IMG/VR virus record: IMGVR_UViG_3300035157_000972 | From: a virus | DNA length: 64,000 nucleotides | Strand: one strand, 5' to 3' | Shown here: piece by piece, positions 22,342 through 64,000 of the stretch | Numbering within the stretch: position 1 is the stretch's first letter | Layout: each line of letters opens with the position of its first letter | Program-made: the position numbers and the translations under genes | Notes under the pieces: generated by a model | Database searches by the model: none | Told to the model about the DNA's origin: nothing | Seen by the model: only the letters and a program-made list of their open reading frames with translations

Positions 22342-22412
22342 AAATTCGACTTTTAATTCCAAAAATACCGGAAAAAAAATTCCGGTATTTTTTTTGTCTT
22401 AAGGTTTTTTAT
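22342..22412. repeat. Copy B of the dispersed element, containing a probable bidirectional terminator
   Basis: Perfect stem AAAAATACCGGA/TCCGGTATTTTT between convergent genes; matches 17443-17512. Confidence 0.7.
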
Positions 22413-25881: not shown

Positions 25882-25909
25882 ACATAGTATATACTGTCCA
25901 TCTATTTAG

Positions 25910-26716: not shown

Positions 26717-26735
26717 TATACTGAATTGAAAAATT

Positions 26736-31690: not shown

Positions 31691-31914
31691 AAACTATCGA
31701 AGATCACATAGCACACGACAAAGAGGTCATCGAAGACCCTATCGCAAGTCCTGCTGCTAGAAGGCATGCAAAGGCAGATTTGCATGAATTAGAAGAATAC
31801 ATGGATCATCACAAAGAAGAGATCGATGCAGGGGATCATCATGACCCTAATGCACTTGAATTATTCTGTGATATGCATCCTGATGAACCTGAATGCCTCA
31901 TTTATGATGATTAA
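31687..31914 (+). CDS. cp12: CP12 Calvin-cycle inhibitor
   Basis: C-terminal 'LELFCDMHPDEPECLIYDD' with the CP12 Cys pair. Confidence 0.92.
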   Translation: MKTIEDHIAHDKEVIEDPIASPAARRHAKADLHELEEYMDHHKEEIDAGDHHDPNALELFCDMHPDEPECLIYDD

Positions 31915-33888
31915 ATGGCGAATCCATTCTTAGAATATGTTGGTTCAGATTTTGCCGGTGAAGACGGACTCAAATATTTTTGGGGTCACGTCACAACTGA
32001 CGCAGCTTGGAGAGAACATCACAAAGAATATGGATATAGGGTAAAGGTTAGAATCATAGGAAAACATCCTGCGGAGGGCGATGAGTCGGAGGGAGGAGTT
32101 CCTGATAAGGATTTGCCTTGGGCAATCGTAATGATGAATCCTGTTTTTGGATCTGGTAAAGATCATGCAGGAACGTCTATGAATCTCCGTGGGGGTGAGT
32201 TGGTATGGGGTTTTTACGCTGATGAAGATCAACAAGTTCCCGTAATTGTTAGTAGCAATTATACTGGATTTAATACTATAAATGATGTAAATTATCTTGC
32301 AAGTGCTGATCTTTCCTATGAGTTTGTACAACCATATTCAAATCCTAATCTTATATGGTCTCTTGCCAATCAAACTATAAATGGCGGTGATCCGGCATCT
32401 AGTAATGGTATAATTGACGAAAATAATAAACTTAATAATGAAGATACAAAACAGGTACATATTGATGAGCAACAGATAGTTGTAAGAAAACCAGAGAAAT
32501 GTAAGGATGACAAATCCTTTGCGAGTCAAATCTCAAGATCTCTTGCATCTTTTATAGAAGTGGCAGAAGGACTAGAAGAGTTTCAAGAAACTTACATAGA
32601 TCCTGTGATGGATGAGATGAGAGATGTTCAAAAACTCGTAGCAGATACAGCAGAAATAATAGCAGGAGCATATGCTCAAGTCATAAGACTAGCAAGGAAG
32701 TTCTTATTTGCCAAGATATATGACTTGGTTGAGGAACTCATGGGATTTTTACAACTTGATAGTTTATTGAAGGACATTGCTGTCAAGAAAGCAGTGGATC
32801 AAATCTATTGTGTAATAGAGAATATTATAAAAGCACTACAAAAGGTTATAGAAGACTTCCTAATAGGATTGATAGGAAAGATTATACAAGCACCACTCTG
32901 TGCAGCAGAGCAGTTTTTAGGTGGGTTGAACACAAAAATGTTCAATGAAATTGAGTCAGCGATTGGTGATGCAATGGATTCCCTATCAGGAATTTTAGGA
33001 CCAATAGGATCGTTTATGGGATACCTTGAAAAGGCAATGGGTTACGCTCAAGTTGCTATAAAATTACTATCATGCGAAGATCAAAACTGTGAACCAGAAC
33101 CTTATGATTGGGCAATGAACTTTGGACCAACTAAGAAAACAAAACTCGATTTCAAGAAAACAATTGATATCTCTTCAAAATTCAATGCTGCAGGAATCGG
33201 TAAGTCTATTACAGATGGTATAGATAAATTCTTCGGATTAGATGACGATGACCTCGAAAATGCAGAAAGAGTTGCAGCGATCATTGGTGACTGTCCAATC
33301 CATAACAAAGTTTGTGGTCCACCGAAGATTGAAATATTTGGTGGTGGTGGAATAGGTGCAGCAGCAAATGCTGTTATCAATGAATTTGGTAGTATTGTGG
33401 GTGTAAATATGCAGTCACTTGGTGTAGGTTATAGTCAGAAACCTTATGTTAGTATAATAGACAATTGTGAAGGTAGAGGAGCAGAGGGTGAAGCAATAGT
33501 GAAAGACGGTCAAGTCATCAATATTATAATAAGAAGAGGTGGTGGAGGATATCAAACTCCTCCAGATGTAACTGATAGTGAGGGTACAAATGTTGTTGGT
33601 GAGATTGAAGATGTAGAAATTATAAGGACAGGTAGAAACTATAGAGAAGGTGATCTTATTGTAAGTCAATGTGGATCATTCAAACCAATATTAGATGGTA
33701 TTGGTAGAATAGTTGGTGCAAAAGTCGTCAGTGTTCATAAAGGTTGTAAAGTCATTCCAGATCTAACAATAAATACAGAAACTGGTCATGGAGCATTGGT
33801 GAGACCTATTATGAGATACAACAAATTTGATGGTGTTGTCATTCCTGATGGTGCTATGAAGGTAATTGATTGTGTTGCAGCATACTAA
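31915..33888 (+). CDS. gp5: Baseplate hub gp5-like protein (OB-fold N-terminus, no recognisable lysozyme)
   Basis: 'YRVKVRIIGKHP..DLPWA..VWGFYAD..QVPVI'. Confidence 0.8.
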   Translation: MANPFLEYVGSDFAGEDGLKYFWGHVTTDAAWREHHKEYGYRVKVRIIGKHPAEGDESEGGVPDKDLPWAIVMMNPVFGSGKDHAGTSMNLRGGELVWGFYADEDQQVPVIVSSNYTGFNTINDVNYLASADLSYEFVQPYSNPNLIWSLANQTINGGDPASSNGIIDENNKLNNEDTKQVHIDEQQIVVRKPEKCKDDKSFASQISRSLASFIEVAEGLEEFQETYIDPVMDEMRDVQKLVADTAEIIAGAYAQVIRLARKFLFAKIYDLVEELMGFLQLDSLLKDIAVKKAVDQIYCVIENIIKALQKVIEDFLIGLIGKIIQAPLCAAEQFLGGLNTKMFNEIESAIGDAMDSLSGILGPIGSFMGYLEKAMGYAQVAIKLLSCEDQNCEPEPYDWAMNFGPTKKTKLDFKKTIDISSKFNAAGIGKSITDGIDKFFGLDDDDLENAERVAAIIGDCPIHNKVCGPPKIEIFGGGGIGAAANAVINEFGSIVGVNMQSLGVGYSQKPYVSIIDNCEGRGAEGEAIVKDGQVINIIIRRGGGGYQTPPDVTDSEGTNVVGEIEDVEIIRTGRNYREGDLIVSQCGSFKPILDGIGRIVGAKVVSVHKGCKVIPDLTINTETGHGALVRPIMRYNKFDGVVIPDGAMKVIDCVAAY

Positions 33889-34433
33889 TGAGTAAAAATA
33901 CAGAAGCACTCATAATTAATACACCGGAAGATGGTTTTCTTCGTATTGGTAACACTACCGAAGATAGAAAACTGAGACCCGATCAGGTGCAATTAGGTGC
34001 CGGTTGTGGATCTAGTCTGAGAATTTTTGAGGATGGTGGATGGGAACTAAGATCCACAGAAAATAAAAAAGGTTGTAATATCATAGCAAGAGGAGAAGGT
34101 GGGTTACACATCTATTCAGATGGTGATATTAATATAGATGCAAGAGGTGACTTCAATGTGTCTGCAAAAAATATTACAATGGAAACTACTGCTGCTGATG
34201 GTGATTTTACAGTCTTCTGTAAAAGAGATATAATGCTTGATGCAGACAATAACTTCAAAGCACTTGGAACAAAGTGTGTTATTACAGCATCAGATACTCT
34301 AGTATCACACTCAAAGGGATGGAATGTCGTTGCTGGTAATCCAGTGTATGTGTATGAGAAGAAGACCAAACTTATACCAACTAGCACACAGGATATCTTG
34401 AATTCATTATTTGAACAATTCTTATTAAATTAG
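33888..34433 (+). CDS. gp5 C-terminal beta-helix-like spike protein
   Basis: 'LRIFEDG', repeated short strands 'GDINIDARGDFNVSAKNI'. Confidence 0.55.
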   Translation: MSKNTEALIINTPEDGFLRIGNTTEDRKLRPDQVQLGAGCGSSLRIFEDGGWELRSTENKKGCNIIARGEGGLHIYSDGDINIDARGDFNVSAKNITMETTAADGDFTVFCKRDIMLDADNNFKALGTKCVITASDTLVSHSKGWNVVAGNPVYVYEKKTKLIPTSTQDILNSLFEQFLLN

Positions 34434-34434
34434 T

Positions 34435-35295
34435 ATGGAATCACCAGAAGTATCAACGGGTAAACTCTATATCGGTCCAAGTATACCGGTAAAACTTGAC
34501 CTATCAGCATTTACTCTCAATTCAAAACTTCCGTTCAATGGAACACTAGCATGTGTGGGTCCTGCCTTCTTTGGTGCAGTTCCACCAACAGGTTTTGCAA
34601 GAGCAATGTGTCAGATGGGTCCGGGAATACCACCATTTGTATCAGCAGTTCCGGGTCTGACTCTTGAAGTGACAGGTGGAACACACCTGATGGGATATCT
34701 GAATGCTTTTGGATTGAACTCAATGATTGGTGTGACTAATAATATTGGTGTTCATAATGGTATAGGACTCAAGAATATGCTTGGGTTTCATAATAGGGTA
34801 GGAAAGCAGACAGCAGTTGGTGGAGAAACATCAGCAGAACCCAATAAGTTCTGTGCAGCACCAACGATGACTCTTACATCTATAAATGGCACACTCAGAG
34901 GTAGTTGGAATCATAATGGCGTACCACTGACTCTCCTGCATGCTCATTCAGATAGAAGTCTAAAGAAGAATATACAACCTATAATATCACCTCTATCCAA
35001 AGTTCTACAACTTCAGGGTGTTACGTTTGAATGGGATCATAAGACTTTGGCAAAGAATAGACCGGGAACAAATATGGGATTGATTGCTCAAGATACTGAA
35101 AAAGTAGTTCCAGAAGTGGTCATAAATACTCGTATCGATACCGATGGTGAAAATCGTGAAGTCAAAGGTATCATGTATGAAAACCTTACTGGTCTCTTGG
35201 TTGAGGCGATAAAGGAACAAAACAAGCGAATTGAACATCTAGAACAATGCATTGCTACACTACAAGCGGAAAAGTCCACACCGACGGAATCATAG
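34435..35295 (+). CDS. Structural protein with C-terminal intramolecular chaperone (peptidase S74) domain
   Basis: 'HSDRSLKKNI..LQGVTFEW..GLIAQD.EKVVPE..YENL..LLVEAIKE' plus coiled coil. Confidence 0.8.
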   Translation: MESPEVSTGKLYIGPSIPVKLDLSAFTLNSKLPFNGTLACVGPAFFGAVPPTGFARAMCQMGPGIPPFVSAVPGLTLEVTGGTHLMGYLNAFGLNSMIGVTNNIGVHNGIGLKNMLGFHNRVGKQTAVGGETSAEPNKFCAAPTMTLTSINGTLRGSWNHNGVPLTLLHAHSDRSLKKNIQPIISPLSKVLQLQGVTFEWDHKTLAKNRPGTNMGLIAQDTEKVVPEVVINTRIDTDGENREVKGIMYENLTGLLVEAIKEQNKRIEHLEQCIATLQAEKSTPTES

Positions 35296-35546
35296 AATTA
35301 CCGGAAGATTGGCGGGGTAACATCAAACCAGAAACAATTGCTGTACAACTGACTGCAATAGGGACAGCTCAGGAATTGTTTGTAAAAGAAATTCAGTGGG
35401 GAGCGAAGGTCATAGTAAGAAACGGTGGAGGTGGTGCAATGAATGCATATTATACTGTAACTGCAGAACCAATCAAAGTTGAAGAGGCACCAAAACCAAT
35501 CGTGCTGGATAATTTCAAACCAAAAAAGAAAAAGTTGACTGCATAG
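35247..35546 (+). CDS. Small structural/chaperone-like domain protein
   Basis: 'IELPEDW..ETIAVQLTAIG..QELFV..YYTVTAE'; overlaps the upstream ORF by 49 nt. Confidence 0.6.
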   Translation: MHCYTTSGKVHTDGIIELPEDWRGNIKPETIAVQLTAIGTAQELFVKEIQWGAKVIVRNGGGGAMNAYYTVTAEPIKVEEAPKPIVLDNFKPKKKKLTA

Positions 35547-35584
35547 TCTATTGTGGTATAATATGTGAGTACCCGACTTTTATT

Positions 35585-35758
35585 ATGATTGACGAATTTG
35601 TAGATCTCGTAGAGGTAAATGTCGCTGCGAGATCTTTTTCTTTGTTTGGTTCTAACGGATCCTCAAAGGTTATTGACAAACTATCAGTAAATCAGTTCAT
35701 GGCAGTCCTAGAAGTGATTAGGGCAGCAGAAGATGATACGGAAATAATTTATGTATGA
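35585..35758 (+). CDS. Small hypothetical protein (57 aa, not in ORF track)
   Basis: MIDEFVDLVEVNVAARSFSLFGSNG..VNQFMAVLEVIR; TTGACT..TGGTATAAT upstream. Confidence 0.6.
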   Translation: MIDEFVDLVEVNVAARSFSLFGSNGSSKVIDKLSVNQFMAVLEVIRAAEDDTEIIYV

Positions 35759-35904
35759 GCAAAATAAAATGCCCTGTATGCGGACATATCTGCAATAGCA
35801 GAATCGAATTTGGTTCGCATATAAGGCGTTGTCAAGCAATAACTGGAGATAGAAATTTCAAGTTCAATAGAAAAAAGAACTCAAAAAAGAAAAAGAAAAG
35901 ATAA
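35755..35904 (+). CDS. C2HC zinc-finger mini-protein with poly-basic tail (49 aa, not in ORF track)
   Basis: C-x2-C-x12-H-x3-C then RKKNSKKKKKR; ATGA coupling. Confidence 0.6.
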   Translation: MSKIKCPVCGHICNSRIEFGSHIRRCQAITGDRNFKFNRKKNSKKKKKR

Positions 35905-36645
35905 CTATTCTCTTATAAACTGAGCAAGATCAGGGTCTTGTAGTGTCTGTACGATCAGATTAGCACTAGCAACATCAGCGTCTAACTCATGTTCTGTTTT
36001 ACGATATCCATATTTTTGTAACTGATACTCTGATCTTGCTTCCTTGATTTCATTTATTGGTGTTCTAACAGCATCTCGTGCTGTTTGTAGTGATGTGATC
36101 TCATTATTTTTTGCAGTGATACTACTTGCATATGATGTGCATGGTGCTCCTGATCCTGACAAAGCAAAAAATGTTCCAATGCTAACAGTTATTATACCAG
36201 TATAAGTTGCAACCCCAACATTTGATGTGGTCATTGCAAAATTACTTTCGTTGAATGGATCTTCACCAACATAATTGGTGTTAGTGTAATCATAATTATA
36301 TAATTGAACTACATCCCTTCTTACATCTATAACTGCTGTAGCATCAGATACGTATGTTGAACATCCTACTTGTTCGGCACCGGTATACAAGTTGAATAAT
36401 TCTGTTTGTGCGTCACTAACAGGAGTATTGAGTGTTAATATACGATCGTCTAAACCTTTAGTAATGGGATCGAATCTGTTTATAACTTCTTCTAGATTTT
36501 CTATTTTAGCAAGAAGGTTATCTTCTGAATCTTTTATTTCAAAACCCTCTTGGGTTTTTTGTACTTCAGTTTTATCTTTCGCTGCTTTCTTTGCCTTCTC
36601 TTGAAAGGTCACTATTAGTTTTTCGGTTTCAGGACCAGATGCCAT
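35905..36645 (-). CDS. Hypothetical virion-associated protein
   Basis: 246-aa ORF with a TATAAATA late promoter on its strand. Confidence 0.6.
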   Translation of the reverse strand: MASGPETEKLIVTFQEKAKKAAKDKTEVQKTQEGFEIKDSEDNLLAKIENLEEVINRFDPITKGLDDRILTLNTPVSDAQTELFNLYTGAEQVGCSTYVSDATAVIDVRRDVVQLYNYDYTNTNYVGEDPFNESNFAMTTSNVGVATYTGIITVSIGTFFALSGSGAPCTSYASSITAKNNEITSLQTARDAVRTPINEIKEARSEYQLQKYGYRKTEHELDADVASANLIVQTLQDPDLAQFIRE

Positions 36646-36647
36646 AG

Positions 36648-36684
36648 TATAAATAGGTTGAAGGAGATAGTGTCAGTATTTATA
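36648..36684. promoter_or_regulatory. Pair of opposed T4-type late promoters
   Basis: TATAAATA at 36648-36655 (+) and 36677-36684 (-). Confidence 0.75.
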
Positions 36685-36687
36685 GGT

Positions 36688-39600
36688 ATGCCGTTAAGCA
36701 GACTCGAAAATTTTCTCAAGAATGTCACAGGTAACGTAATTTACGTTAATCCTGAAGAACTTGATGCAACAGATGATATTAGTAATAGGGGAAGTAGTCG
36801 AGCAAGACCTTTCAAAACTATTCAACGTGCATTAATTGAGGCAGCGAGATTTTCATATCAAGTAGGTGGGAATAACGATAAGTTTGATAAAACCACAATT
36901 TTATTATCACCGGGTGTTCATTACGTTGATAACAGACCCGGATTGCAAATTAATACATCAGGTTCACTAACTGATGTAAATGGAACTGCAGCAACAATAG
37001 ATCAGTTGTCTATTGGTTCCAATTTTGATATTCAAGATCCTAATAATGTATTATACAAGTTTAATAGTGCCAGTGGTGGTGCTATTGTTCCTCGTGGTAC
37101 ATCAATAGTTGGTCAAGATCTAAGAAAGACAAAGATAAAACCAAAGTTCGTTCCACAACCTGACAACGGTAATATTGATACGTCAGCAATATTCAAAGTT
37201 ACAGGTGCATGTTTCTTCTATGGATTTAGTTTCTTTGATGCTGATCCAAATGATAGAATCTTCAGAGATTATACATCAAATGTATATGCTCCAAACTATT
37301 CTCATCACAAGTTAACTTGTTTTGAATACGCTGATGGCGTGAATACTATTGCAGGTAAGGGTAATACCGACCTTGACATGTATTATTATAAGTTGACACT
37401 TGCTTATGGTACTAACAGTGGTCGTGCTATACCAGTATATCCTACAAATACAGATTTCGAGAAGTCAGTTGATGAAACTCGTATTGTAGGTGCTATATCA
37501 CAGGTTGGATCTATTTCGATTAGTGACATATACTCTGGTTCAAATCCTACAGATGGAGTGGCAACACCTATCGTTACTGTAGTAACAGCAACTAATCATA
37601 GTTTTGAAGTAGGAACACCAGTTCTAATCCAAGGTGTTGATGATACAAATTATGATGGAAGTTATATTGTATCTCAGGTTCTTAGTGATACTTCTTTCAC
37701 ATATTCTGTACCTTCCACTCCTTCAAGCACAGCAACTCCAAACTTGTCTGGGCTAAATCCGATAGTTAAAGTAGAGAGTGATACTGTATCATCAGCATCA
37801 CCATATATTTTCAACTGTTCAATAAGATCGGTATACGGTATTTGTGGACTAAACGCTGATGGTAGTAAAGCAACTGGATTCAAGTCCATGGTTGTTGCAC
37901 AGTTTACTGGTATCGCACTAAACAAAGATGATAATGCTTATGTCAAGTACAACACTACAACAGGTGTGTGGCAAGATCAAGCAGCACTTGGATCATCAGT
38001 CAGTTTGCACACAGATAGTTTAGCAAAACATAAACCATCTTACCAAAACTATCATATAAGAGTAAGTAATAACGGTATAATTCAGGCAGTATCAGTATTC
38101 GCTATTGGATATGCACAGCATTTCTTTGCTACTTCTGGTGGTGATATGTCAATCACCAACTCTAACTCTAACTTTGGTGCTAAGTCACTAGAAGCAGATA
38201 AGTTTAGATTTGAATCATTCCTCAAAGATGATAAAGGATTCATAAGAGAGATAAATCCACCACAGCATAACTTTGCAAAAGAAACTACAGTAGGATTTTT
38301 ACCATTAGATGTAGAGGCAACTGTAGGTGTATCAACAGATATCAAGGTTTACCTCAACGATTTCAAAAATAAAGATAATAAACCAAATGTAATACTCAAT
38401 GGGTTCCACGTTGGTGCTAAGATAGGAGATCAACTCAACGTAAGTATTGGTAACACAGTATTTGGAGCAGACATCGTTATGCCTGTTCCTCAGACTGACC
38501 CTGATGAAAGAGTATCTGGTCAGAAAGAAATATTCGTTGGTAGAGTATCAGGTATCAATAGTATAACTGGAAATACTTTTACATTACAGTCTGATCATAA
38601 GTTTATAAACGGTGAGACAGTCAGAGTTTATTCTGAAAACGGATCACTACCTGATGGATTAGATTATAACAGAGTTTATAATGTTATAACTACATCCCTC
38701 AATGCTGATCAAATTCAGTTAGCATCAACCCTGAACAATGCCGTTGCTGGTAATGAGATCACAGGCATCAATAATTCAGGTGGACTTCTTCGTATAGTAT
38801 CAAAAGTATCTGATAAAGAAGCAGGAGATGTGGGACATCCCGTGCAGCACGATGCTTCAGGTTGGCATGTAAATGTTGGAGTGGGTAATACTTTATCTGC
38901 TGCTATAACAGGAAGTCAGAGTTCTATTACACCAAAGACCAGAACTTCATTCATCAAGAGGACACTTGATAGGCGTGAAGAGTCAGAGAAGAATTATGGA
39001 TTGAAGTATATCATACCTCAAGATTCTAATCTAGCAGCAGCACCGATAGCAGGTTTTAGTATCGCTGAGACATCTTCAGTTCCAGATGATACAAACTATC
39101 AGAATGACAATAATGTTCTTACATCAGCATCAAATCTAAGACAACCAAACAATATTATCAATGCTTCATGGGCAAGCAATGTAGGTATTATCACTGCAGA
39201 GCAACCTCATGGATTGAAAGTAGGTCATATCGTACAGGTTTATAGACTTAGAAGTTCTACAAATGCATCAGGAACTGACAATAGTGGTTTCAACGGTATA
39301 TTTGAAGTATCTGCAGTTCCAAGTGATACCACATTCAGAGTTGGATTGAACACAGATCCCGGTGGAATTTCTACAATTACAATTGGTATCCCTTATACAT
39401 TCCATGATAGAAGTATTGTTGGTTCAGGTAGAACATTCAGTCCTTACTTCGTAAAACGTGACTTCAATACAAGTTATCAGATACAGGGTACAAATGAGAT
39501 ACAGGAATATAAGCAGGGAGTACAGGATGGTGAGTATGATCTAACATTACGTGGATATATTTCACAACCAGAGGTTTCTCCATTCTCCACAACTACAAAC

Positions 39601-53853: not shown

Positions 53854-54551
53854 AGTTTGGATTCTACCTCTTTTATATGGTGTGGACGGTCAACTGATCT
53901 TATCTTACCACAATTTAGGTCGTATGGCACAACATTATATTTGCCACAGAAACCAATGGTATCAAGACCTTTCCAGTATTTCACAATACCCATATCACAA
54001 TTAGGAAAGTCTCGAATTACGTCTATCTTATACAAATAAAAACCTAACTGAACTACTATATTATCGCACACTATCTCACATTCTCTCATCATATTTGTTA
54101 TCACACCATTATTACATATCATTTTTACTACATCTTCGTCCTGTAAGTCACTTTGCTCCAACTGTCTCATGGGTTGCACCATGTCACAGTGGTGTCTCAC
54201 ACCAAACTTTATTACCTGATCTAACCAGTCAGGTTGAGTTAGCGGTTCGTCTCCCTGCAAATTAAGAATGAAATCACTTTCCACATTTTGAGATACTTCT
54301 GCAACTCTATGAGTGCAAGTGTAGTGCTTTCCTGTAAGTCTGGATTCATAACCCTCCTTTTTGCAAAGATCAACAATTTCGTTATCTTCAGTAGCAACGA
54401 TAACATTGTCAATATATTTAGACTTTCGTGCTATGTCGGCAACCCTGAGAACCATTGCCCTGTCATTGATGAGAGCAAGGGGTTTTCTCGGAAACCTAGA
54501 TGACGACAGTCTAGCAGGGATTACACATGTAATCTTCTGACCTAAGTACAT
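53850..54551 (-). CDS. kdsB: KdsB-like acylneuraminate/Kdo cytidylyltransferase
   Basis: 'VIPARLSSSRFPRKPL', 'VATED', 'NLQGDEP', 'VVK', 'SVDRP'. Confidence 0.85.
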   Translation of the reverse strand: MYLGQKITCVIPARLSSSRFPRKPLALINDRAMVLRVADIARKSKYIDNVIVATEDNEIVDLCKKEGYESRLTGKHYTCTHRVAEVSQNVESDFILNLQGDEPLTQPDWLDQVIKFGVRHHCDMVQPMRQLEQSDLQDEDVVKMICNNGVITNMMRECEIVCDNIVVQLGFYLYKIDVIRDFPNCDMGIVKYWKGLDTIGFCGKYNVVPYDLNCGKIRSVDRPHHIKEVESKL

Positions 54552-54632
54552 AGTTTTTTATTCATATAGATATGGTAACATTGGTTGCGAAAAAATGCAA
54601 CGTGGAGTATTATATAGTTTTACAGTCAATCT

Positions 54633-54908
54633 ATGAGAAGAATCAATCTAGGAGACATAGTAAGGTCAGGAGACGATACTGGCGAGGTCTGTTTCATTTC
54701 TTCTTCATATTTTTGCATGTGTGTTAGGTTGGGGGAGATCGCATTGTATGATGTAAAAGTGCTTGTATCTAGAACATTAGACAACTTCGAGATAGTACGC
54801 AAGGTGGATAGTGACAGTTTAGAGACTGTCACAAAGGAGATTGAAAAGAAATACAGATATAATAGAGTAAGATCAAATCAAAAATGGAGAGTACCTTATG
54901 TTATCTGA
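54633..54908 (+). CDS. Hypothetical protein
   Basis: 91-aa ORF, first gene of the rightward block. Confidence 0.5.
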   Translation: MRRINLGDIVRSGDDTGEVCFISSSYFCMCVRLGEIALYDVKVLVSRTLDNFEIVRKVDSDSLETVTKEIEKKYRYNRVRSNQKWRVPYVI

Positions 54909-55071
54909 AAACGAGTACAACCTTATAGTATATTGCTTGGAACAGCAAATGTACGAGTTCACACCTGATGAGCAAAAAGATGCTAATAATATAGTAGTCA
55001 AATTATCAGAGCATGTGACAGTTGACAAGGTGGCACACAGACACGAGCGTAGAGATTTAGACAGACTATAA
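54898..55071 (+). CDS. Small hypothetical protein (57 aa, not in ORF track)
   Basis: MLSENEYNLIVYCLEQQMYEFTPDEQKDA...; GGAG upstream. Confidence 0.45.
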   Translation: MLSENEYNLIVYCLEQQMYEFTPDEQKDANNIVVKLSEHVTVDKVAHRHERRDLDRL

Positions 55072-55072
55072 T
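55015..55072 (+). promoter_or_regulatory. Early-type promoter module with upstream palindromic box
   Basis: GTGACAGT-N6-GGTGGCAC then TATAAT (55067); related boxes at 57351, 59016, 60347, 60979 and 61786. Confidence 0.65.
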
Positions 55073-55093
55073 GGTAGTATAACAACAAAGATT

Positions 55094-57352
55094 ATGACAG
55101 TATCAATCGAAATCAAAGGTAATCTTGCTAAGTTACTAGCAACAGAAGACCTTATCATTGAGCATAAACCAGTCGAGACAGCATCATTTGATGTTGATAG
55201 AAGAGTCCTTACTCTACCTGTATGGGATAGAGCAAGTGAGACTGTTTACGACATGCTAGTGGCACATGAAGTGGGTCACGCTCTATTCACACCTAATAGA
55301 GATTGGTGGAAAGAAGATGAGTTCAAAACAATACCACATGATTATGTCAATGTGGTAGAAGATGCTCGTATTGAAAGACTTATCAAGCAAAGATATAGAG
55401 GTCTCAACAGGGATTTCAACAGAGGATATTCTGAGTTACACAATGATGATCTATTTGAATTAGAGGATACAAATGTAAATCATTTGAAACCTATTGATAG
55501 AATCAATCTATACTTCAAGATCGGTAGTTTCATTGACATTGAGTTCAATGATACTGAGAATGAGTTTGTGACCAGAATTTCTAGATGTCAAACATTTGAC
55601 GAGGTGCTACAAATATCTAAAGAGATACACAAGTACACTAAAGAAATGCAAGAGCAAATGCAGAAGCAAGCAAATGCCGAGCAAAAAGATTCTGAAGCAC
55701 AAGATAATGCCAAAGTCGAGGTCAGACCTGACATGTCAGAGTCTAATGATAACACTCAGGCACAAAAAGTTGAGCAAGAAACTGATACTCAAGGTCAGGG
55801 AGATCAAGAGAAAGAAGAACCAGTACAAGGTAGATCAGACAAATCATTTCCTGATGAAGTAGAGGATACTGAACAGAAACAGGACGAGATAGAAAATTCT
55901 GGCGATACTCAGGGTGGAGAGTTCGGAGACATCAATACTGCTAGAACTCAGAGATCACTTGACGAGAGTCTAGAGGATTTGACTAACACATACAAAGATC
56001 AAGTACCTACACAATATGTTACTATACCTAACATGCAAATGGATAAGGTAGTAGTTGAATTTGATCGTATCAAATCATATCTTGATAAGCATTTTGTTGA
56101 GAATAATACTACTGACTCATCAAATAATTTCATCATTGAGCATACAAGAAGATTCAATGAGTTCAAGAAGTCAAGTAACAAAGAAGTCAACTATCTTGTC
56201 AAAGAGTTTGAAATGAAAAAGTCAGCAGACTCATACGCTAGACAAAGAACTGCAAAGACTGGTATGCTTGACACATCTAAGTTACACACATATTTGTACA
56301 ATGAAGATGTATTCAAGAAAGTAACAACAATTACTGACGGTAAGAATCATGGTCTTGTATTTGTTCTGGACTGGTCAGGTTCAATGAACAACATACTTGA
56401 AGATACTCTCAAGCAATTATTTCAATTAGTCTGGTTCTGTAAAAAGACACAAATCCCTTACGAGGTGTACGCTTTCACAAATGATTCATGGAAACTAGAC
56501 TACCTTGAAGATACTGATACAGACAACTATTCAGCATATAGAACTCAATCATCTAATTTACTGGTTGACACTTGGAAAGAAGGAGACATCAATATTGATG
56601 GGTGTTTCCGTATGGTAAACATATTATCATCTAAGGCAAGAACCAAAGATATTGAGAAACAAATGCTAAACTTATGGTTGACAAACTGTAGTTTCAAGTA
56701 TCACTACAATCATTGTTTCCAACACCCTGCATATTTTCATCTATCAGGTACACCATTGAATGAAGCGATCATTGCCACTAAGCAAATAGTCAAGCAAATG
56801 ATGAAGAAAATTCAAAAGGTTCACGTTGTTATCCTGACTGATGGGGAAGCACATCAACCTAGTTACAATGTGGATAGATCAAAGTTACATGATTCATTCG
56901 GAGTTGACTACAAGGGTACAAGATCAATCAACTCAACTTGTATGTTGAGAAATCGTAGGTCAGGTAAGACTTATGGATTGACCTATAGTAATTGCTCATT
57001 GAAACTTATTGAGTGCATCAAGGACGATCTACCTAACGTCTCATTCATTGCCTTTAGAGTGGTCGAGAGGGGTGGTATGAGATACGTTTGGACTCAGTAT
57101 GGTATGGATACATACAACACATACGAGGAAATGAAAGAGCAAGTCAAGAAAGGAAATCTCTCACTCAAATTGAACTCATTTGATAGATTCTTTATGATTC
57201 CCCAACAGCATCTAAGTGTGGACTCAGATCAACTAGAGCAAGTTGACGAGGGTGCAACTAAAAGAGAAGTCTCAATGGCATTTCGTAAGATGTTCAAGAA
57301 CAAAAAGACTAACAAGTTTATGCTCTCAGAGTTTGCAAAGACCATTGCATAA
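55094..57352 (+). CDS. Metallopeptidase-like (HEXXH) plus VWA-domain protein, CobT-like partner of CobS
   Basis: 'AHEVGHAL', 'NVVEDARIE', MIDAS 'LDWSGSM', 'SGTPL', 'LTDGE'. Confidence 0.85.
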   Translation: MTVSIEIKGNLAKLLATEDLIIEHKPVETASFDVDRRVLTLPVWDRASETVYDMLVAHEVGHALFTPNRDWWKEDEFKTIPHDYVNVVEDARIERLIKQRYRGLNRDFNRGYSELHNDDLFELEDTNVNHLKPIDRINLYFKIGSFIDIEFNDTENEFVTRISRCQTFDEVLQISKEIHKYTKEMQEQMQKQANAEQKDSEAQDNAKVEVRPDMSESNDNTQAQKVEQETDTQGQGDQEKEEPVQGRSDKSFPDEVEDTEQKQDEIENSGDTQGGEFGDINTARTQRSLDESLEDLTNTYKDQVPTQYVTIPNMQMDKVVVEFDRIKSYLDKHFVENNTTDSSNNFIIEHTRRFNEFKKSSNKEVNYLVKEFEMKKSADSYARQRTAKTGMLDTSKLHTYLYNEDVFKKVTTITDGKNHGLVFVLDWSGSMNNILEDTLKQLFQLVWFCKKTQIPYEVYAFTNDSWKLDYLEDTDTDNYSAYRTQSSNLLVDTWKEGDINIDGCFRMVNILSSKARTKDIEKQMLNLWLTNCSFKYHYNHCFQHPAYFHLSGTPLNEAIIATKQIVKQMMKKIQKVHVVILTDGEAHQPSYNVDRSKLHDSFGVDYKGTRSINSTCMLRNRRSGKTYGLTYSNCSLKLIECIKDDLPNVSFIAFRVVERGGMRYVWTQYGMDTYNTYEEMKEQVKKGNLSLKLNSFDRFFMIPQQHLSVDSDQLEQVDEGATKREVSMAFRKMFKNKKTNKFMLSEFAKTIA

Positions 57353-57409
57353 ACCAATTATAATAGTGGCACATTGCATATTGCATTGCCACTATGCACC
57401 CTATACAAT
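57351..57409 (+). promoter_or_regulatory. Early-type promoter module
   Basis: AAACCAAT-N6-AGTGGCAC, then TTGCAT-17 bp-TACAAT. Confidence 0.65.
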
Positions 57410-57442
57410 TAGTACATAAGCAATCAATCAACAATCAAGATT

Positions 57443-58573
57443 ATGCCAAGAACAATCAACTTTGAACCACACTTTGATGCAATCACTTCTAAGTATGGTA
57501 AAGAACTAGATGCTGATATGGTCAAGGAGTATGTTGCAAACAACCCTGATGTATCCTACCAGACTGTCACTAAGTATCTAAACAAGTGGAAAATATCTAG
57601 AGGTAAGTGGAACATCAAAACACCACAACAAGAAACTCAGATACCAACTGCTACATTTCAAGTACAGCAACCACAATCAACTAAACTCACAAAGACTGAG
57701 AAAGTTGAACAAAATCTTATCCCTGCAAAGGATAACACATTCATACCTTTCGGCAACTTCCCTGCACTCAAGAAAGTAATTGCATCTAGGGAGTTCTATC
57801 CAACATTCATTACTGGTATGAGTGGCAATGGTAAGACATTCGGTGTTGAGCAAGCATGCTCTCAGTTGAACAGAGAACTTATCAGGGTCAACATTACAGT
57901 CGAGACTGACGAGGACGATTTGATCGGTGGTTTCAGACTTGTCAATGGTCAAACAGTATGGCACAATGGTGCTGTTGTTGAAGCATTAGAGCGTGGTGCT
58001 ATCTTATTACTTGATGAGATTGATCTAGCATCAAACAAGATACTATGCTTACAACCCATACTAGAGGGCAAAGGTCTGTTTCTCAAGAAGATTGGCGAGT
58101 ACATCAAACCTGCAAAGGGATTCAATGTCATTGCTACTGCTAACACAAAGGGCAAGGGTTCTGATGACGGTCGTTTCATAGGTACTAACATACTCAATGA
58201 AGCGTTCCTTGAGAGATTCCCTATCACATTTGAGCAAGAGTATCCTACAGTAGTGACTGAGAAGAAGATACTTACCAGACTATGTGAAGAGATCGGCATA
58301 CCTCTTACAGGCGATCACAAAGGGTTCATAGACTACCTATGTGACTGGAGTGACATTGTAAGACGTACATTCAAAGACGGTGGTGTTGATGAGATCATAT
58401 CCACTCGAAGACTCGTACACATCATGAGAGCATATCAAATCTTTGGCGATAAAGTCAAGGCAATGCAAATGTGTCTCAACAGATTTGATGATGAGACCAA
58501 AGAGTCATTCATGCAACTCTACACCAAACTAGACGAGCATATCAAGTCAGAAGAGAATGTTACGGAGTCGTAA
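57443..58573 (+). CDS. cobS: CobS-like MoxR AAA+ ATPase
   Basis: Walker A 'GMSGNGKT', 'ETDEDDLIGG', Walker B 'LLLDEID', 'ATANTKGKG', 'AFLERF', 'STRRL'. Confidence 0.9.
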   Translation: MPRTINFEPHFDAITSKYGKELDADMVKEYVANNPDVSYQTVTKYLNKWKISRGKWNIKTPQQETQIPTATFQVQQPQSTKLTKTEKVEQNLIPAKDNTFIPFGNFPALKKVIASREFYPTFITGMSGNGKTFGVEQACSQLNRELIRVNITVETDEDDLIGGFRLVNGQTVWHNGAVVEALERGAILLLDEIDLASNKILCLQPILEGKGLFLKKIGEYIKPAKGFNVIATANTKGKGSDDGRFIGTNILNEAFLERFPITFEQEYPTVVTEKKILTRLCEEIGIPLTGDHKGFIDYLCDWSDIVRRTFKDGGVDEIISTRRLVHIMRAYQIFGDKVKAMQMCLNRFDDETKESFMQLYTKLDEHIKSEENVTES

Positions 58574-58580
58574 CATTCTA

Positions 58581-58609
58581 TTGACAGGGTAAACCAAACC
58601 TGTCATAAT
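58581..58609 (+). promoter_or_regulatory. Sigma70 promoter with internal inverted repeat
   Basis: TTGACA-17 bp-CATAAT; TGACAGG/CCTGTCA palindrome. Confidence 0.7.
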
Positions 58610-58711
58610 GAGTATGTCAGTCAGAGGTTTTGATTGATGACTGACTGACTGACAAACCATTTGTGTCATGTCGTATGACCTAAAACTAGGCACTTGAAAA
58701 CTTACTACATT

Positions 58712-58933
58712 ATGATTATGCAAATTACAGGTTCTTCCGCTATCGCAAACGTAAACTTCAAAGATGCAGGTTTAGTTGGAATCACATTCACATCACAAGA
58801 TACTGAGTATGATTTTCTTGCGAAGGATTCAAACCTTGTTCGTAATGGACTAAGCAATGCAATCTCAAAAGGAGATAGCGTTGGCAAGTTGATCGCTTCA
58901 TACAGAAGAGAAGGTCAACTAACAGAAGTGTAA
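58712..58933 (+). CDS. Small KTSC-like protein
   Basis: 'SSAIANVNF..GITFT..EYDF..SVGKLI'. Confidence 0.5.
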   Translation: MIMQITGSSAIANVNFKDAGLVGITFTSQDTEYDFLAKDSNLVRNGLSNAISKGDSVGKLIASYRREGQLTEV

Positions 58934-58989
58934 TCTGAAACTACACAAAGACAACTGAATATTTTGACACTAGCATAATCTCGCAAAGC

Positions 58990-59015
58990 AAAGCACTCGA
59001 AAGGGTGCTTTTCTT
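58990..59015 (+). terminator. Intrinsic terminator
   Basis: AAAGCACTC-GAAA-GGGTGCTTT followed by a T-rich tail. Confidence 0.75.
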
Positions 59016-59073
59016 ATGCCAATTTATATACTGGTACAAATTGGTTGTTATAGCATAAGACTTATACTATAAT
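59016..59073 (+). promoter_or_regulatory. Early-type promoter driving the restriction-modification pair
   Basis: ATGCCAAT-N6-ACTGGTAC, then TTGTTA-17 bp-TATAAT. Confidence 0.65.
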
Positions 59074-59095
59074 GAGTATATCAATTACAGACACA

Positions 59096-59623
59096 ATGAT
59101 TACAGCAAAAGACATTCTACAATTCAAAACACACAAAGTTTCTCTACAAGAAAGTAAGAGTTGTATCTACAATGGTAGTCCATTTCAAGTCTATAAACAA
59201 ATGAGTAGCAAGAAGAAAGGGGCAAGGTTCGAGGGTATTGTACAAGAGTATTGCACAAACTTAGGATACAAAGTTACAAAACCTGATAACTCAGATCATG
59301 ACAGGAAGATCAACAACATCAAGGTTGAGATCAAGGGTTCAATGATATGGTCAGGCAAAGATGAGCATTTCCGTTGGCAACAATTACGACCGCATCAAGA
59401 TTATGATGTTGTTATATTCCTTGCAATATTCCCACAACAGATAGAGTTCTATGGTTGTACAAAGCAAGATGTCAAAGACAATCTTGAAATACAGGACGAG
59501 AAGGGCAACTGGATACACAACCAACATGGAGGACTCAAGGTCAACTCAGGCACATTCTTTTTGGATAGTGACGGTCTAACCATACCAACATGGTTCAAAT
59601 CAATCGAAGAGGTATTACAATGA
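59096..59623 (+). CDS. Type II restriction endonuclease-like protein (PD-(D/E)XK)
   Basis: 'KGARFE', 'DHDRKINNIKVEIKGS', 'WQQLR..QDYD', 'QHGG'; start moved to 59096 because TATAAT overlaps the ATG at 59072. Confidence 0.75.
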   Translation: MITAKDILQFKTHKVSLQESKSCIYNGSPFQVYKQMSSKKKGARFEGIVQEYCTNLGYKVTKPDNSDHDRKINNIKVEIKGSMIWSGKDEHFRWQQLRPHQDYDVVIFLAIFPQQIEFYGCTKQDVKDNLEIQDEKGNWIHNQHGGLKVNSGTFFLDSDGLTIPTWFKSIEEVLQ

Positions 59624-60408
59624 AACTCAACACAATTACAAACTCAGACTGTCTAAAGTATCTAAAGAAACTACCAGACAATTCAGTTGACCTCGTACTA
59701 ACTGACCCCCCATACTTCATAGGATTTGACGGTGGTAAGGGTTGGGATAAGCAATGGAAGAGTGACAGGGAGTACATTCAATGGTGCATAGAGTGGACTA
59801 AGGAGTGTGTTAGGGTACTCAAAGATGAACGTATGCTCGTTGTATGGGGTACTCTAAAGACTGAAGCGTTCTTATTGTATAAACTAGCATTGAACCGTAT
59901 GGAGGGCATTACACCCCAGAATGAGATCATTTGGTCATACAACTGGGGTGGTAGGTCTAAGGATAACTTTGCTCGTAAACATGAGTATGCGTGGTGCTAT
60001 TCAACAGGTGATAAATTTTTGTTCAATGGTGATGACGTAAGAATTGATCGTAAGATGAATACTAACATAAGAACTGGTTTACAGCATACAAAGGGAACTA
60101 TACCAACATGTGTATGGGAGAAGAACAACCACACAACCAGTAAGGACTATGTTGGTTGGCATGCTACAACTAAGAACATTGATATACTGTCAAGAATAAT
60201 CAAGGCATATACAAATGTCAATGATGTCGTTCTGGACTGTTTCATGGGTTCTGGTTCAACTGCTATCGCTAGTATCAGGACTGGACGTAACTTTGTAGGG
60301 TGTGAAAGAGATAAAGAATACTATACAAAGGCAAAGAAACGTATTTGTGACAGTCAAAAAAGTGACACCAAAAACGTGTCTAAGGCAAGTTTAGCGTCTA
60401 TACTATAG
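59620..60408 (+). CDS. Beta-class N6-adenine/N4-cytosine DNA methyltransferase
   Basis: Motif IV 'TDPPY' precedes motif I 'LDCFMGSGST'; ATGA-coupled to the nuclease. Confidence 0.92.
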   Translation: MKLNTITNSDCLKYLKKLPDNSVDLVLTDPPYFIGFDGGKGWDKQWKSDREYIQWCIEWTKECVRVLKDERMLVVWGTLKTEAFLLYKLALNRMEGITPQNEIIWSYNWGGRSKDNFARKHEYAWCYSTGDKFLFNGDDVRIDRKMNTNIRTGLQHTKGTIPTCVWEKNNHTTSKDYVGWHATTKNIDILSRIIKAYTNVNDVVLDCFMGSGSTAIASIRTGRNFVGCERDKEYYTKAKKRICDSQKSDTKNVSKASLASIL

Positions 60409-60429
60409 ACATATACAGGAGTTACACCT

Positions 60430-60570
60430 ATGAGACAATTCACAGTTTCAGCACTTCTTGAAGGATACAGGATAGAGGAGACTGTAACAGCAGTTTCTAT
60501 TCATCATGCTATCAAGATCATGAAGGCAAAGTATGGCAATTCAGCAAGAAACATTTACGTTTTGAACTAA
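60430..60570 (+). CDS. Small hypothetical protein (46 aa, not in ORF track)
   Basis: AGGAG upstream; MRQFTVSALLEGYRIEETVTAVS... Confidence 0.55.
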   Translation: MRQFTVSALLEGYRIEETVTAVSIHHAIKIMKAKYGNSARNIYVLN

Positions 60571-60740
60571 TGAATGAACAAAGACTAAACGAAGAACTCG
60601 ACCTCTTAGAGGAGCATGAAAGAGTCAAAGAAAAGCGTTATCAGGAGTTTCAGCAATGGTTGAACAGTTGCCCTCTCGTGATAACTGACTACAACGATTT
60701 CACAACCGAGTTTCAAATCACATTCTCATTATCTGACTAA
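60570..60740 (+). CDS. Small hypothetical protein (56 aa, not in ORF track)
   Basis: TAATG-coupled at both ends. Confidence 0.55.
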   Translation: MNEQRLNEELDLLEEHERVKEKRYQEFQQWLNSCPLVITDYNDFTTEFQITFSLSD

Positions 60741-60982
60741 TGGAGTACATCACATACAAAAAGCAAGATTTCATTTTTGCATCAAGTCACATTTTATGTG
60801 AGACATTACCCCCTGACTTTGATTCATGGAGTGAAGAAAGACTAGACGATTTCCTAAGTGACAATGCTTATGAACCGTACGAGTATCACACACCCACACA
60901 AATATTTCAAGAGATAGAGTCACTTGCTCACTCAGTTAGAGATTATATCAAAGCAGATCACGAAGACTCTTTGATGATGTGA
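60740..60982 (+). CDS. Small acidic hypothetical protein
   Basis: Coupled ORF in early module. Confidence 0.6.
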   Translation: MEYITYKKQDFIFASSHILCETLPPDFDSWSEERLDDFLSDNAYEPYEYHTPTQIFQEIESLAHSVRDYIKADHEDSLMM

Positions 60983-61057
60983 CAATGAATTACTGGCACA
61001 TCTACGCTTGCTTTCTACTATGCAAGTATTATTATTATAGTATAACAAATCAATCAC

Positions 61058-61279
61058 ATGGAAAGAACTAAAAAACAACTCATGAAAGACCTACAATTCT
61101 GTAAGAATGTTTTAGGTCTATCCCCAGAAGACACCGATCAAATGATCTCAGTATGTGACAAGATGCAAATTGGTGCTGAATATTTTTCAGAAGAATTTGT
61201 ATTTGAAGCAGACTGTATCGAAACAGTATTGAGAGTACATGACCCAGAATATCTACAAATCAAATGGAAATTAGCATGA
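61058..61279 (+). CDS. Small hypothetical protein
   Basis: First ORF after promoter module 60979. Confidence 0.6.
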   Translation: MERTKKQLMKDLQFCKNVLGLSPEDTDQMISVCDKMQIGAEYFSEEFVFEADCIETVLRVHDPEYLQIKWKLA

Positions 61280-61485
61280 ATGACAAAGGGCAATTCAATT
61301 TGCCACTCACACATACTCAGTTATGTGATGTCATATACTATCTTGACTGGAAAATTTTTGAAGTCAATGAAGCAGGTTGCGATCTAGAATTTCCAGAGAT
61401 CGAAGACACACTTCAACAACTAAGAGATTACAAACATCAAATCTCTCAAAAATATAATCTATTCGAGGTTGAACATGGAACTTAG
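61276..61485 (+). CDS. Small hypothetical protein
   Basis: ATGA coupling. Confidence 0.55.
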   Translation: MNDKGQFNLPLTHTQLCDVIYYLDWKIFEVNEAGCDLEFPEIEDTLQQLRDYKHQISQKYNLFEVEHGT

Positions 61486-61804
61486 ACAAGATAGTAAAGA
61501 CACATACACCTTGAAACTCACTCGCAGGGAACTAGGTTTACTTCATTACCAGTCAAGCATTTGGTATCATAGAGTGGACTCAGACCTTGAGCAGGGTGCT
61601 ATCGGATACGATCATCACTTATGGGATTGGTTCGGCAAAGATGCTGTTGTAGGTCTATACAGAGCAGTTAGAACCCTTATTGATTCTAACTTTGACAATG
61701 ACAAACAGTTACAGCGTAAAGATGCTTTTACCAAACCATTTTGTTATGAACCAAAGAGTGAAAACCACTACACTAAGTGGGATATTGGTCAATTCAAAGA
61801 CTGA
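61475..61804 (+). CDS. Hypothetical protein
   Basis: GAGG upstream; overlapping ORF. Confidence 0.55.
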   Translation: MELRQDSKDTYTLKLTRRELGLLHYQSSIWYHRVDSDLEQGAIGYDHHLWDWFGKDAVVGLYRAVRTLIDSNFDNDKQLQRKDAFTKPFCYEPKSENHYTKWDIGQFKD

Positions 61805-61866
61805 CACATGATCGGTTGCTATTTTATTGTAACCGATTATTATAATACTATAGCAATCAATCAATC

Positions 61867-62124
61867 ATGGCAATGACACCTCGACAATTCATGGAAGAAG
61901 TTTACGAGATAGCGTATGGCGATCAAGCATACTATCGTGGTTTCTTTCCAGAAGAAGTGCTAGAAACACTTAGAGAATTTTCAGACAATGCTCTCAAGGT
62001 CGAAGAGTTGAGTCTAGAACCAGAACAGTATGAAGACATGGATAGGCAACTTGAAGACGCTTATCGTAGAGGATACAAAGACGGTCGTAAATTTGCATTA
62101 CAACAACAGGAGACTAACTCATGA
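61867..62124 (+). CDS. Small acidic hypothetical protein
   Basis: First ORF after promoter module 61786; 'FMEEVYEIAYGD'. Confidence 0.6.
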   Translation: MAMTPRQFMEEVYEIAYGDQAYYRGFFPEEVLETLREFSDNALKVEELSLEPEQYEDMDRQLEDAYRRGYKDGRKFALQQQETNS

Positions 62125-63894
62125 ATCGTTCAGAACTAGAAAAACTAATTACTGACTTTGTTTTAGAGCATAATCTTGATGCTCAGTTTGTACAGCAAAC
62201 AGAAGGACTAACTTATGTTCGATTTGTAGTCGAGGAGGACTCATGAAACAGTTTATCATTTATGCCACTAAAGAATACGAGTACACAAAAACCGTATTTG
62301 CAAAAGACATTACTGACGCTCATCTACAGGCATTTTACAGAACTGAAGACCCAGAGGACGATTGGACTTGTATTACTGACCCTGACTATGATGATGACAA
62401 CCCTTACAACATTACACTAATTGAGGAGTCATGACTAAAAACGAATTTACAGACTTACTTGCAAAGTGGACTGACAAGTATATCATGTCAATGTCAGTTG
62501 ACCAACTCAGACATCACGTTGCTGAAGACGTATTTACAACAATGCTCAATCTTAGGAAATATGGAGACGAGCGTGAAGTATTTGACGAAATGATTGACTG
62601 GGGTGGAGAAGATTTATTCAATGAGGTATCATCATGACTAGAGATTATCAACCAGAAGGAGTCAAATATACATTTCCTGATGATGACCCATATCAGGAGA
62701 GCAATGAAATCTATTACAACATGGTAGATTTTCTAGATGATTCAGAAGTACATCAAATCTGGGAAATTGTCGGCAAGGCACTTGACAGAAATAATATTGT
62801 CACAACAGACAATGAAAGTCTATCAGTTCGGGTGTATGATGAACTTAGTGAAGAGGACTAACTCATGAAAACAGTTACTTACACATTTGATGAACTACAC
62901 GCTTTTAGTGAGCATGTCACATGGTGTATCATGGAACAAGATCAACCAGTAGATGACAACCTACAATCTTTTATAGACAAAACTCTTTATTCAAATGACT
63001 AATCACAAACAAGTAAACTTCACAACTGTCATGGACTATCGTCAAACATTTACAGTTGACCTAGATTTTGAAGCACTCAAAAAAGAGTACATTGAAAAGC
63101 ATGACTTTGATGAAGAAGAAGTGCAAGGTATGTGGGAGAGTGATGACGAATTGTACAACCTCGCATGGGAAATGGTCATGGAAGACCCAGACAAGTATCG
63201 TGACCAAGAATTTGGTCATGGAGACTATGACAATGAAGTCGTGTATCATGACTGTATAATCTGATGAAAGTTTACACGTTACTATTGACAGAAGGCGAGA
63301 TCAATTCATTGAAAGATCGTCTAGAGTCAGACAACTACGTCAATTATGACAATGATCTCAAATCAGTAGTTGAAAAGATCGGTTACTTCTTTGAACCACA
63401 AAAAGATGGAACTATCGACAATTCCCCATACAACGAAATTCCTGACAGGTACTAAACATGGCAATTCCAGACAAACTAACCAAAGCACAATTTGACGCTC
63501 TCAAAGAGTATTATGTTGATCGTATTGTTGATAATATGTCAACAAAAGACCTCGTTCGTTACGTTTATGATGATATGTCAGAGTGGGTTGACTCACTCGG
63601 ATATACTGAAGCAATGAATGAATTTGAGGAATATTGGCAAGAATATTTTACGGATACAATAGAGGAAGTTTTGGAGTGTGTCAAGGAATGATTTGTTACG
63701 AAGTTTACAACATTGATTTTGACTTTGATGACGGTATCGAAGAACCGATTACAAGAGAAGAAAAGAAATCAATCATAGCAGACAATCTTGGCAAGTGGTA
63801 TGCACTTGATGATGATGACCTGATTGACGATATTACCTCGACAAGTGGGTGGTGCATCAAACATATTGACTACGAAATTGCTGAAATTGTATAA
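62121..63894 (+). other. Array of nine translationally coupled or abutting small acidic ORFs (62121-62246, 62243-62434, 62431-62637, 62634-62861, 62865-63002, 62995-63264, 63264-63455, 63458-63691, 63688-63894)
   Basis: ATGA/TGATG overlaps, GAGG(A) ribosome-binding sites, Asp/Glu-rich products typical of early host-takeover genes; no families recognised. Confidence 0.6.
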
Positions 63895-63902
63895 AATGTA
63901 CA

Positions 63903-63931
63903 TTGACTTATAATAGCATAGCGTCTATTAT
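63903..63931 (+). promoter_or_regulatory. Sigma70-type promoter before an ORF starting at 63953 that runs off the window
   Basis: TTGACT-17 bp-TATTAT. Confidence 0.55.
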
Positions 63932-64000
63932 AATAGTAATTCAATCAATCACATGGATTCATTCACTAGACCAGAAAGAGATCTAAACAAAGAACTCTCA

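Follow-up and report, generated by a model that had tools for sequence, protein, structure and literature searches.

The 64,000-nucleotide stretch analysed here (the window) comes from the virus record IMGVR_UViG_3300035157_000972, and its source is a marine T4-like cyanomyovirus. On the + strand it carries a gene for a small nuclease (59072-59623, 183 aa) followed by a gene for a DNA methyltransferase (59620-60408, 262 aa from the ATG at 59620), and this gene pair is probably a phage-borne type IIP-like restriction-modification (R-M) module recognising TTAA. An initial annotation of the window had proposed such a pair, and the proposal is now supported by the comparison of relatives, in which the presence of the nuclease, the state of the methylase and the number of TTAA sites are linked to each other. 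The two genes share an ATGA junction, the methyltransferase ATG (59620-59622) overlapping the nuclease TGA (59621-59623). The coupling of a PD-(D/E)XK nuclease to a beta-class methyltransferase with a DPPY motif, as first annotated, was confirmed by the open reading frames, by their overlap at 59620-59623 and by the match of the second protein to PF01555 (E 1e-48).

TTAA in relatives with and without the nuclease and the methyltransferase

The comparison set consisted of about 80 related phage sequences, and word counts are given below as observed/expected numbers. Equal depletion of TTAA in relatives lacking the pair was looked for as a test of the proposal and was not found: in 50 kb of S-PM2, Syn9 and P-SSM7, which have no nuclease of the window's clade, the word was present at normal frequency (342/359, 274/314 and 372/372, respectively). 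TTAA was totally missing from S-ShM2 (0/173 in 50 kb, and also 0/20), where the nuclease has no adjacent methyltransferase, and from the complete 192,351 bp sequence G002 (0/693), which has the nuclease and in whose whole contig no methyltransferase was found. When all 256 tetramers were compared, TTAA alone separated S-ShM2 from the controls without a window-clade nuclease, with a ratio of 0.003, while the next lowest word stood at 0.65. In the case of S-BM3, which has the nuclease and an unlinked methyltransferase 70% identical to that of the window, 22/150 sites were left (ratio 0.15), and the 121 kb sequence G006, a relative of the window with the nuclease and an intact adjacent methyltransferase, retained 301/678. 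S-SSM4, with a distant nuclease paralogue only, showed 486/509.

Loci having the nuclease and no methyltransferase gave TTAA counts of 0/43 (L029), 0/52, 0/41 (L053) and 2/54 (L038). At L022, L023, L030 and L047 the methyltransferase is a shortened protein of 207 aa without DPPY, and the counts were 0/66, 0/68, 0/65 and 0/79, respectively. Such remnants (L022:10528-11151, L030:10537-11160) adjoin an intact nuclease gene; their motif IV reads EPPP or EPPS and some 35 residues have been lost from the middle region, and they look like decaying partner genes. When the loci were sorted by the state of the methyltransferase, those containing any TTAA had intact DPPY and FxGxG motifs, L038 aside. The lineages with an intact methyltransferase all retained the word (21 of 21, ratios between 0.01 and 0.9). 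Zero TTAA was thus found in none of these 21 lineages versus seven of the nine lacking a working methyltransferase (hypergeometric p ~2e-5, the lineages being not fully independent), and in the nuclease tree the zero-TTAA lineages fall on four or more distinct branches. A library or assembly artefact was considered as the source of the missing sites and was rejected: an MseI-cut library would break contigs at the sites rather than yield 192 kb free of TTAA, and the isolate genomes agree.

The separate, linked DNA methyltransferase gene of a type II R-M system is found here not only as the ATGA overlap of the window. At 29 of the 36 IMG/VR loci bearing a nuclease relative, the nuclease is followed at 0-50 bp by a methyltransferase homologue, and the pair was found on other metagenome contigs as well, in divergent phages, in varied neighbourhoods and in both gene orders. 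On one 262-kb contig (L012) the methyltransferase precedes the nuclease and is a different PF01555 (N6_N4) protein (L012:3259-3996) with DLPY as motif IV, which suggests that this nuclease was re-paired with another methylase.

A second nuclease clade and the word TCGA

The S-SSM4 paralogue (L069:18296-18829) is 28% identical, retains the catalytic HDR...EIK and has the WQQxR strand replaced, with F-I-I-N-H-V in the TCGA clade as against W-Q-Q-x-R in the TTAA one, a candidate for the switch of specificity; it is solitary and lies downstream of a helicase gene. The stretches of S-SSM4 (NC_020875) analysed were 1-38754 (L069) and 100001-150000 (L078). Over these 88.7 kb TCGA was completely absent (0/174), and the word was normal in every other phage examined. 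P-SSM7 has a copy of the paralogue, 75% identical to that of S-SSM4, followed directly by two T4-GC_38 methyltransferases (the gene cluster labels read GC_685, then two GC_38), and its TCGA count was 76/98. Among 43 IMG/VR loci of the S-SSM4/P-SSM7 clade, the 17 without an adjacent methyltransferase homologue have zero TCGA (four of them end just downstream of the nuclease), while TCGA was retained in 14 of the 17 loci with a methyltransferase. Since this clade repeats the TTAA pattern with TCGA, the same rule relating nuclease, methylase and word holds twice. In the case of ACG-2014f, which has a distant paralogue, no palindromic 4- or 6-mer and no 5-mer was missing beyond the general depletion of GGCC. 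Judged from these word counts, specificity clearly shifts within the nuclease family, apparently to TCGA in the S-SSM4 clade and to an unclear site in ACG-2014f and in the P0088 lineage discussed below.

TTAA and other words in the window

The window contains 64 TTAA sites. The expected number was 588 from base composition, 273 under a second-order Markov model (ratio 0.24) and 334±14, with a minimum of 302, in 100 synonymous-codon shuffles (ratio 0.19). The first counts were exactly right: there are two sites in 1-3180 (1082 and 3177) and none in 54300-64000, the last one lying no further than 54262, and AATT and TATA are indeed common (396/422 and 484/492, both normal). The statement that the site had been purged holds for the relatives without a methyltransferase; in the window, the depletion is about four-fold with 64 sites remaining, and the term overstates it, since RGCY and GCGC are rarer still.

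The remaining sites are unevenly placed. An island at 19924-37766, which covers gp32 and the baseplate and tail-fibre module (these genes lie at 21-35 kb), holds 46 of the 64 with a ratio of about 0.45; of the 16 RGCY/CGCG sites left in the window, 10 lie there too. The island shares 70-76% identity with G006, versus 85-88% for the other parts of the window. Because of the excess of residual sites and the greater divergence from G006, the island appears to be a module acquired through recombination with a phage whose avoidance rules differed.

GCGC (0/12), AGCT (5/126), AGCC, GGCT and CGCG (1/8) are more depleted than TTAA in the window, and RGCY and GCGC, together with CCGG, were considered as the target of the pair and rejected. 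RGCY (AGCT, AGCC, GGCT) and GGCC are depleted in all cyanomyovirus controls, whether the nuclease is present or not. The lack of GCGC and CGCG is confined to the window and P-SSM7 (0/21 and 0/13), which does not have a nuclease of the window's clade, and is not seen in the Synechococcus phages. CCGG is over-represented in the window (78 versus 46 expected) and nearly absent, with 0-1 sites per 50 kb, from five cultured phages (S-PM2, Syn9, P-SSM7, S-ShM2, S-BM3). The pattern of CCGG, GCGC and CGCG in the window could stem from differences in host range or in the restriction systems of the hosts.

The nuclease

The nuclease is a member of PHROG 6927 and of the cyanophage cluster T4-GC_685; the latter assignment comes from tblastn matches, which land on the S-ShM2 and S-BM3 genes so labelled. 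Its sequence gave no significant match to Pfam, NCBIfam or the PDB chains, and the names of the homologues in their sources were uninformative (one 'Mrr', one 'ferredoxin', the others hypothetical). The motif string first read in this protein is present in it. In 21 homologues E54, D77, E86-x-K88, Q103-Q104-x-R106, N150-Q-H-G-G154 and N158-S-G-T-F162 are invariant, and the window protein keeps all of these residues. E54, D77 and E86-x-K88, together with the fold matches, correspond to the catalytic core of a PD-(D/E)XK restriction enzyme. The AlphaFold (AF2) model, with a predicted local distance difference test (pLDDT) score of 89.9, matched the PD-(D/E)XK homing endonuclease I-Ssp6803I (Z 11.7, root mean square deviation (rmsd) 2.5, 115 residues aligned; Foldseek E 1.5e-4) and NhoI (Z 9.7, rmsd 3.5, 114 aligned); further matches were Hjc, PvuII and EcoRV.

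A symmetric homodimer was predicted in silico with an ipSAE of 0.76, the best of three controls reaching 0.00; contact agreement between runs was at least 81% and partner pLDDT at least 89. Among proteins solved as one-chain pairs, 20 of 30 came up to the mark, as did 1 of 23 solved as single chains, counts that are only approximate, since the prediction used its own alignment. The enzyme is therefore predicted, from the model, to be a homodimer, which would match a palindromic site.

The methyltransferase

The methyltransferase matches PF01555 (N6_N4_Mtase) with 166.6 bits against a cut-off of 26.7, and shares 70% identity with an S-BM3 gene that carries the label T4-GC_38. The DPPY motif (motif IV) lies N-terminal to FMGSGS (motif I), which is the beta-class order. 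The nearest solved relatives are M.MboIIA, M.RsrI and CcrM; from this kinship and from DPPY, the enzyme appears to be of the N6-adenine rather than the N4-cytosine type.

Observations that weigh against a TTAA-specific pair

Several observations speak against the reading proposed here. The argument that both enzymes act on the same site, TTAA being absent where the nuclease stands without a working methyltransferase and tolerated where the methyltransferase is intact, is an indirect one, drawn from the comparison of sequences. The nearest characterised relatives of the methyltransferase recognise GAAGA, GAATTC and GANTC, and since these are other sites, its specificity is not readable from homology. 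The top structural match of the nuclease is a homing endonuclease. Two peptide patterns were scanned against 185,579 prokaryote species genomes, and this brought up no bacterial relative of the nuclease, although distant ones could escape such patterns. Three loci with an intact methyltransferase (L045, L048, L050) have only 1-3 TTAA sites; since they are nearly free of the word despite the intact gene, the methyltransferase is not the sole factor. Finally, the P0088 lineage (L015/L123) has a TTAA ratio of 0.53 and no methyltransferase in the part of its 163-kb contig that was searched, 10 kb upstream and 2.4 kb downstream of the nuclease. In its member L123 (JGI 3300025141 Ga0209756_1000016, 1-12879 reversed), where the nuclease homologue is 44% identical, the counts were 24/46 for TTAA, 0/23 for GGCC and 8/41 for GATC. 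An unlinked methylase or an altered specificity could explain this exception.

Alternative explanations

The pair could be a real R-M system whose site is a longer or degenerate word containing TTAA, or the nuclease of the window could have lost its activity, the depletion being a relic. The 64 sites left in the window and the 301 in G006 would fit such a view, as would the shifts of specificity within the family, to TCGA in the S-SSM4 clade and to an unclear site in P0088 and ACG-2014f. At the residual sites, however, no particular flanking base is excluded, and each of the four NTTAAN palindromes is about as frequent as the number of TTAA sites would predict. Moreover, the relatives without a methyltransferase have lost every TTAA whatever its flanks, and the family-invariant residues are all intact in the window protein. 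We therefore regard this explanation as unlikely.

It is quite unlikely that TTAA is avoided because the hosts have a restriction system cutting it, with the phage methyltransferase as an anti-restriction device and the nuclease having another role or being a hitchhiker. Avoidance of host restriction sites is common among phages (PMC6286503), the depletion of RGCY, GGCC and CCGG in cyanomyoviruses irrespective of the gene pair indicates that host-type pressures shape these genomes, and a methyltransferase alone would account for the tolerance of TTAA where it is present. The loss of TTAA nevertheless follows the nuclease gene and not the host. S-PM2, where the word is normal, and S-BM3, where the ratio is 0.15, were both isolated on Synechococcus WH7803, and since they share this host, the host does not explain the difference between them. 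No control without a window-clade nuclease is depleted in TTAA, the coupling is repeated with TCGA in the second clade, so that a coincidence with the host would be needed twice, and the tight linkage of the two genes would be left unaccounted for.

A further view, that a selfish mobile nuclease with a long target, such as a free-standing homing endonuclease, stands beside an orphan methyltransferase, is very improbable: T4-like phages do have many free-standing homing endonucleases, the likeness of the fold to I-Ssp6803I is real and the nuclease gene occupies different genomic positions in different phages, but an enzyme with a long target gives no reason for the genome-wide loss of a 4-bp word (0/693), the pairing with a methyltransferase is conserved at most loci, TTAA is gone wherever the methyltransferase is gone or degenerate, and no intron or intein context was seen at the loci inspected.

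Proposed mechanism and evolution of the pair

For the TTAA-specific R-M pair, the following scheme is suggested. The small homodimeric PD-(D/E)XK enzyme would cut unmethylated TTAA, and the beta-class methyltransferase, presumably co-transcribed and probably translationally coupled with it, would methylate the adenine of TTAA on the phage DNA. Any DNA in the infected cell that is neither methylated nor free of TTAA would be attacked, that is, the host chromosome and the genomes of co-infecting phages, and the nucleotides of the host could be recycled in phages lacking T4's denA, denB and ndd. Self-protection would be achieved by methylation, by loss of sites or by both, along an evolutionary continuum. 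At a first stage nuclease and methylase would be acquired together and TTAA tolerated. Selection would then erode the word, as may be seen in the window, G006 and S-BM3 at ratios of 0.15-0.44 and in L045, L048 and L050 near zero. At the third stage the methylase would decay (DPPY to EPPP or EPPS) and be lost, so that the nuclease alone remains; in a genome without any TTAA the methylase would be dispensable.

A broader proposal, to which we give about an even chance, is that T4-GC_685 represents a phage family of 'genome-shredder' four-cutters with diversified specificities (TTAA, TCGA and perhaps others), which would supply the host-DNA degradation missing in cyanomyoviruses together with the exclusion of competitors. 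Many lineages would then be immune solely by deletion of the target word from a genome of 180-190 kb, a solitary restriction enzyme having arisen by the stepwise decay of an R-M pair.

Comparison with known systems

Virus-encoded R-M systems are already known. The chlorovirus type II systems (R.CviAII/M.CviAII, CviJI; PBCV-1 and its relatives) resemble the cyanophage pair in that a virus-encoded endonuclease with a short site (2-4 bp) adjoins its cognate methyltransferase, and their presumed role is an early breakdown of host DNA that supplies nucleotides for recycling (PMC7019647). They differ in having a eukaryotic algal host; their enzymes are packaged in the virions, and no sequence relationship of the cyanophage nuclease to the chlorovirus enzymes was detectable. 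In PBCV-1 a methyltransferase pseudogene also remains from a pair that has lost its endonuclease (PMC7019647); the direction of decay would be reversed in the cyanophages, which lose the methylase, keep the nuclease and purge the site genome-wide. The GATC R-M pair of Marseillevirus, likewise a viral pair, has been proposed as a weapon against co-infecting viruses without the same methylation (PMC7253447). It belongs, however, to a giant virus of amoebae whose host DNA was shown not to be degraded, and both the site and the enzyme families are different.

Cyanomyoviruses have no denA, denB or ndd, and their route of host DNA degradation has been called undescribed (PMC2984593). The logic of the T4 enzymes EndoII (denA) and EndoIV (denB), with hydroxymethyl-cytosine as self mark, is the same as that suggested here, in that a lytic T4-like phage destroys DNA without its own mark. 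In the cyanophages, however, the mark would be a methylated or absent 4-bp word instead of a globally modified base, the proteins have no kinship with those of T4, and host DNA is the presumed target.

The MseI R-M system of Micrococcus and its isoschizomers consist of a small endonuclease and an amino-methyltransferase acting on TTAA. The word is the same as that proposed for the cyanophage pair; a likeness of the two nucleases, suggested in the initial annotation, is conjectural. I-Ssp6803I, NhoI, PvuII and EcoRV resemble the cyanophage nuclease in core fold and in their catalytic D...ExK arrangement, but with only 10-16% sequence identity and with other targets and biology. In the searchable open-access literature no report was found of TTAA or palindrome avoidance in cyanophages or of phage MseI-like systems. 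The same literature gave no earlier report of this uncharacterised nuclease family with its putative TTAA and TCGA specificities and its place in marine T4-like cyanophages, nor of solitary nucleases protected only by total removal of their site from genomes of about 190 kb.

The locus and its surroundings

The nearest cultured sequence to the window is P-SSM7, with about 76% identity in cobS only (57443-58573), and the window stretch was met again in metagenomes, from seawater and other marine samples, of nine or more studies. The initial annotation had placed an early-type promoter in front of the pair. There is indeed a sigma-70-like match directly 5' of the nuclease gene (TTGTTA-17-TATAAT, 59045-59073, + strand, 10 of 12 positions), but it is a weak one and, since the matches across the region (5) do not exceed those in shuffled sequence (7.0±2.7), it is to be taken as a consensus match only, and use of the pair early in infection is conjectural. 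Because the -10 box runs into the ATG at 59072, the true start of the nuclease is probably M9 at 59096, giving 175 aa. This start agrees with the N-termini of the homologues and with variant contigs, seen in four RNA libraries, which substitute 58993-59090.

A GC-rich hairpin followed by a T run was noticed by eye at 58990-59016, between the upstream gene of 79 aa (PHROG 4357) and the promoter-like sequence; it is not among the hits of the terminator scan. The variant contigs have a different hairpin at this location. Metatranscriptome contigs from four runs of three studies span both genes and their junction, which is weak evidence, as DNA carry-over is possible and such contigs carry no information on transcript start, level or strand. 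In a contig of one RNA-library run (X18), 59114 is joined to 59632, so that nearly the whole nuclease gene is skipped and the methyltransferase is kept; it may represent a natural nuclease-deletion variant, although the shorter side of the join is only 24 letters long.

Significance

Cyanomyoviruses are among the most abundant viruses of the ocean, and the gene pair is a concrete, testable candidate for the disposal of host DNA in a subset of them. In G002 (0/693 TTAA in 192 kb) and S-SSM4 (0/174 TCGA) the nuclease, of restriction type, stands alone, and the total loss of its presumed site is the one form of self-protection that can be seen. Since intermediates and decaying methylases are visible, the evolutionary path of an R-M system within viruses can be read from the genomes. 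For an uncharacterised nuclease family without a Pfam model, specificities were predicted by comparative genomics alone, and such small four-cutters may prove to be useful enzymes. The signatures of absent words could also predict which phages would exclude each other in co-infection.

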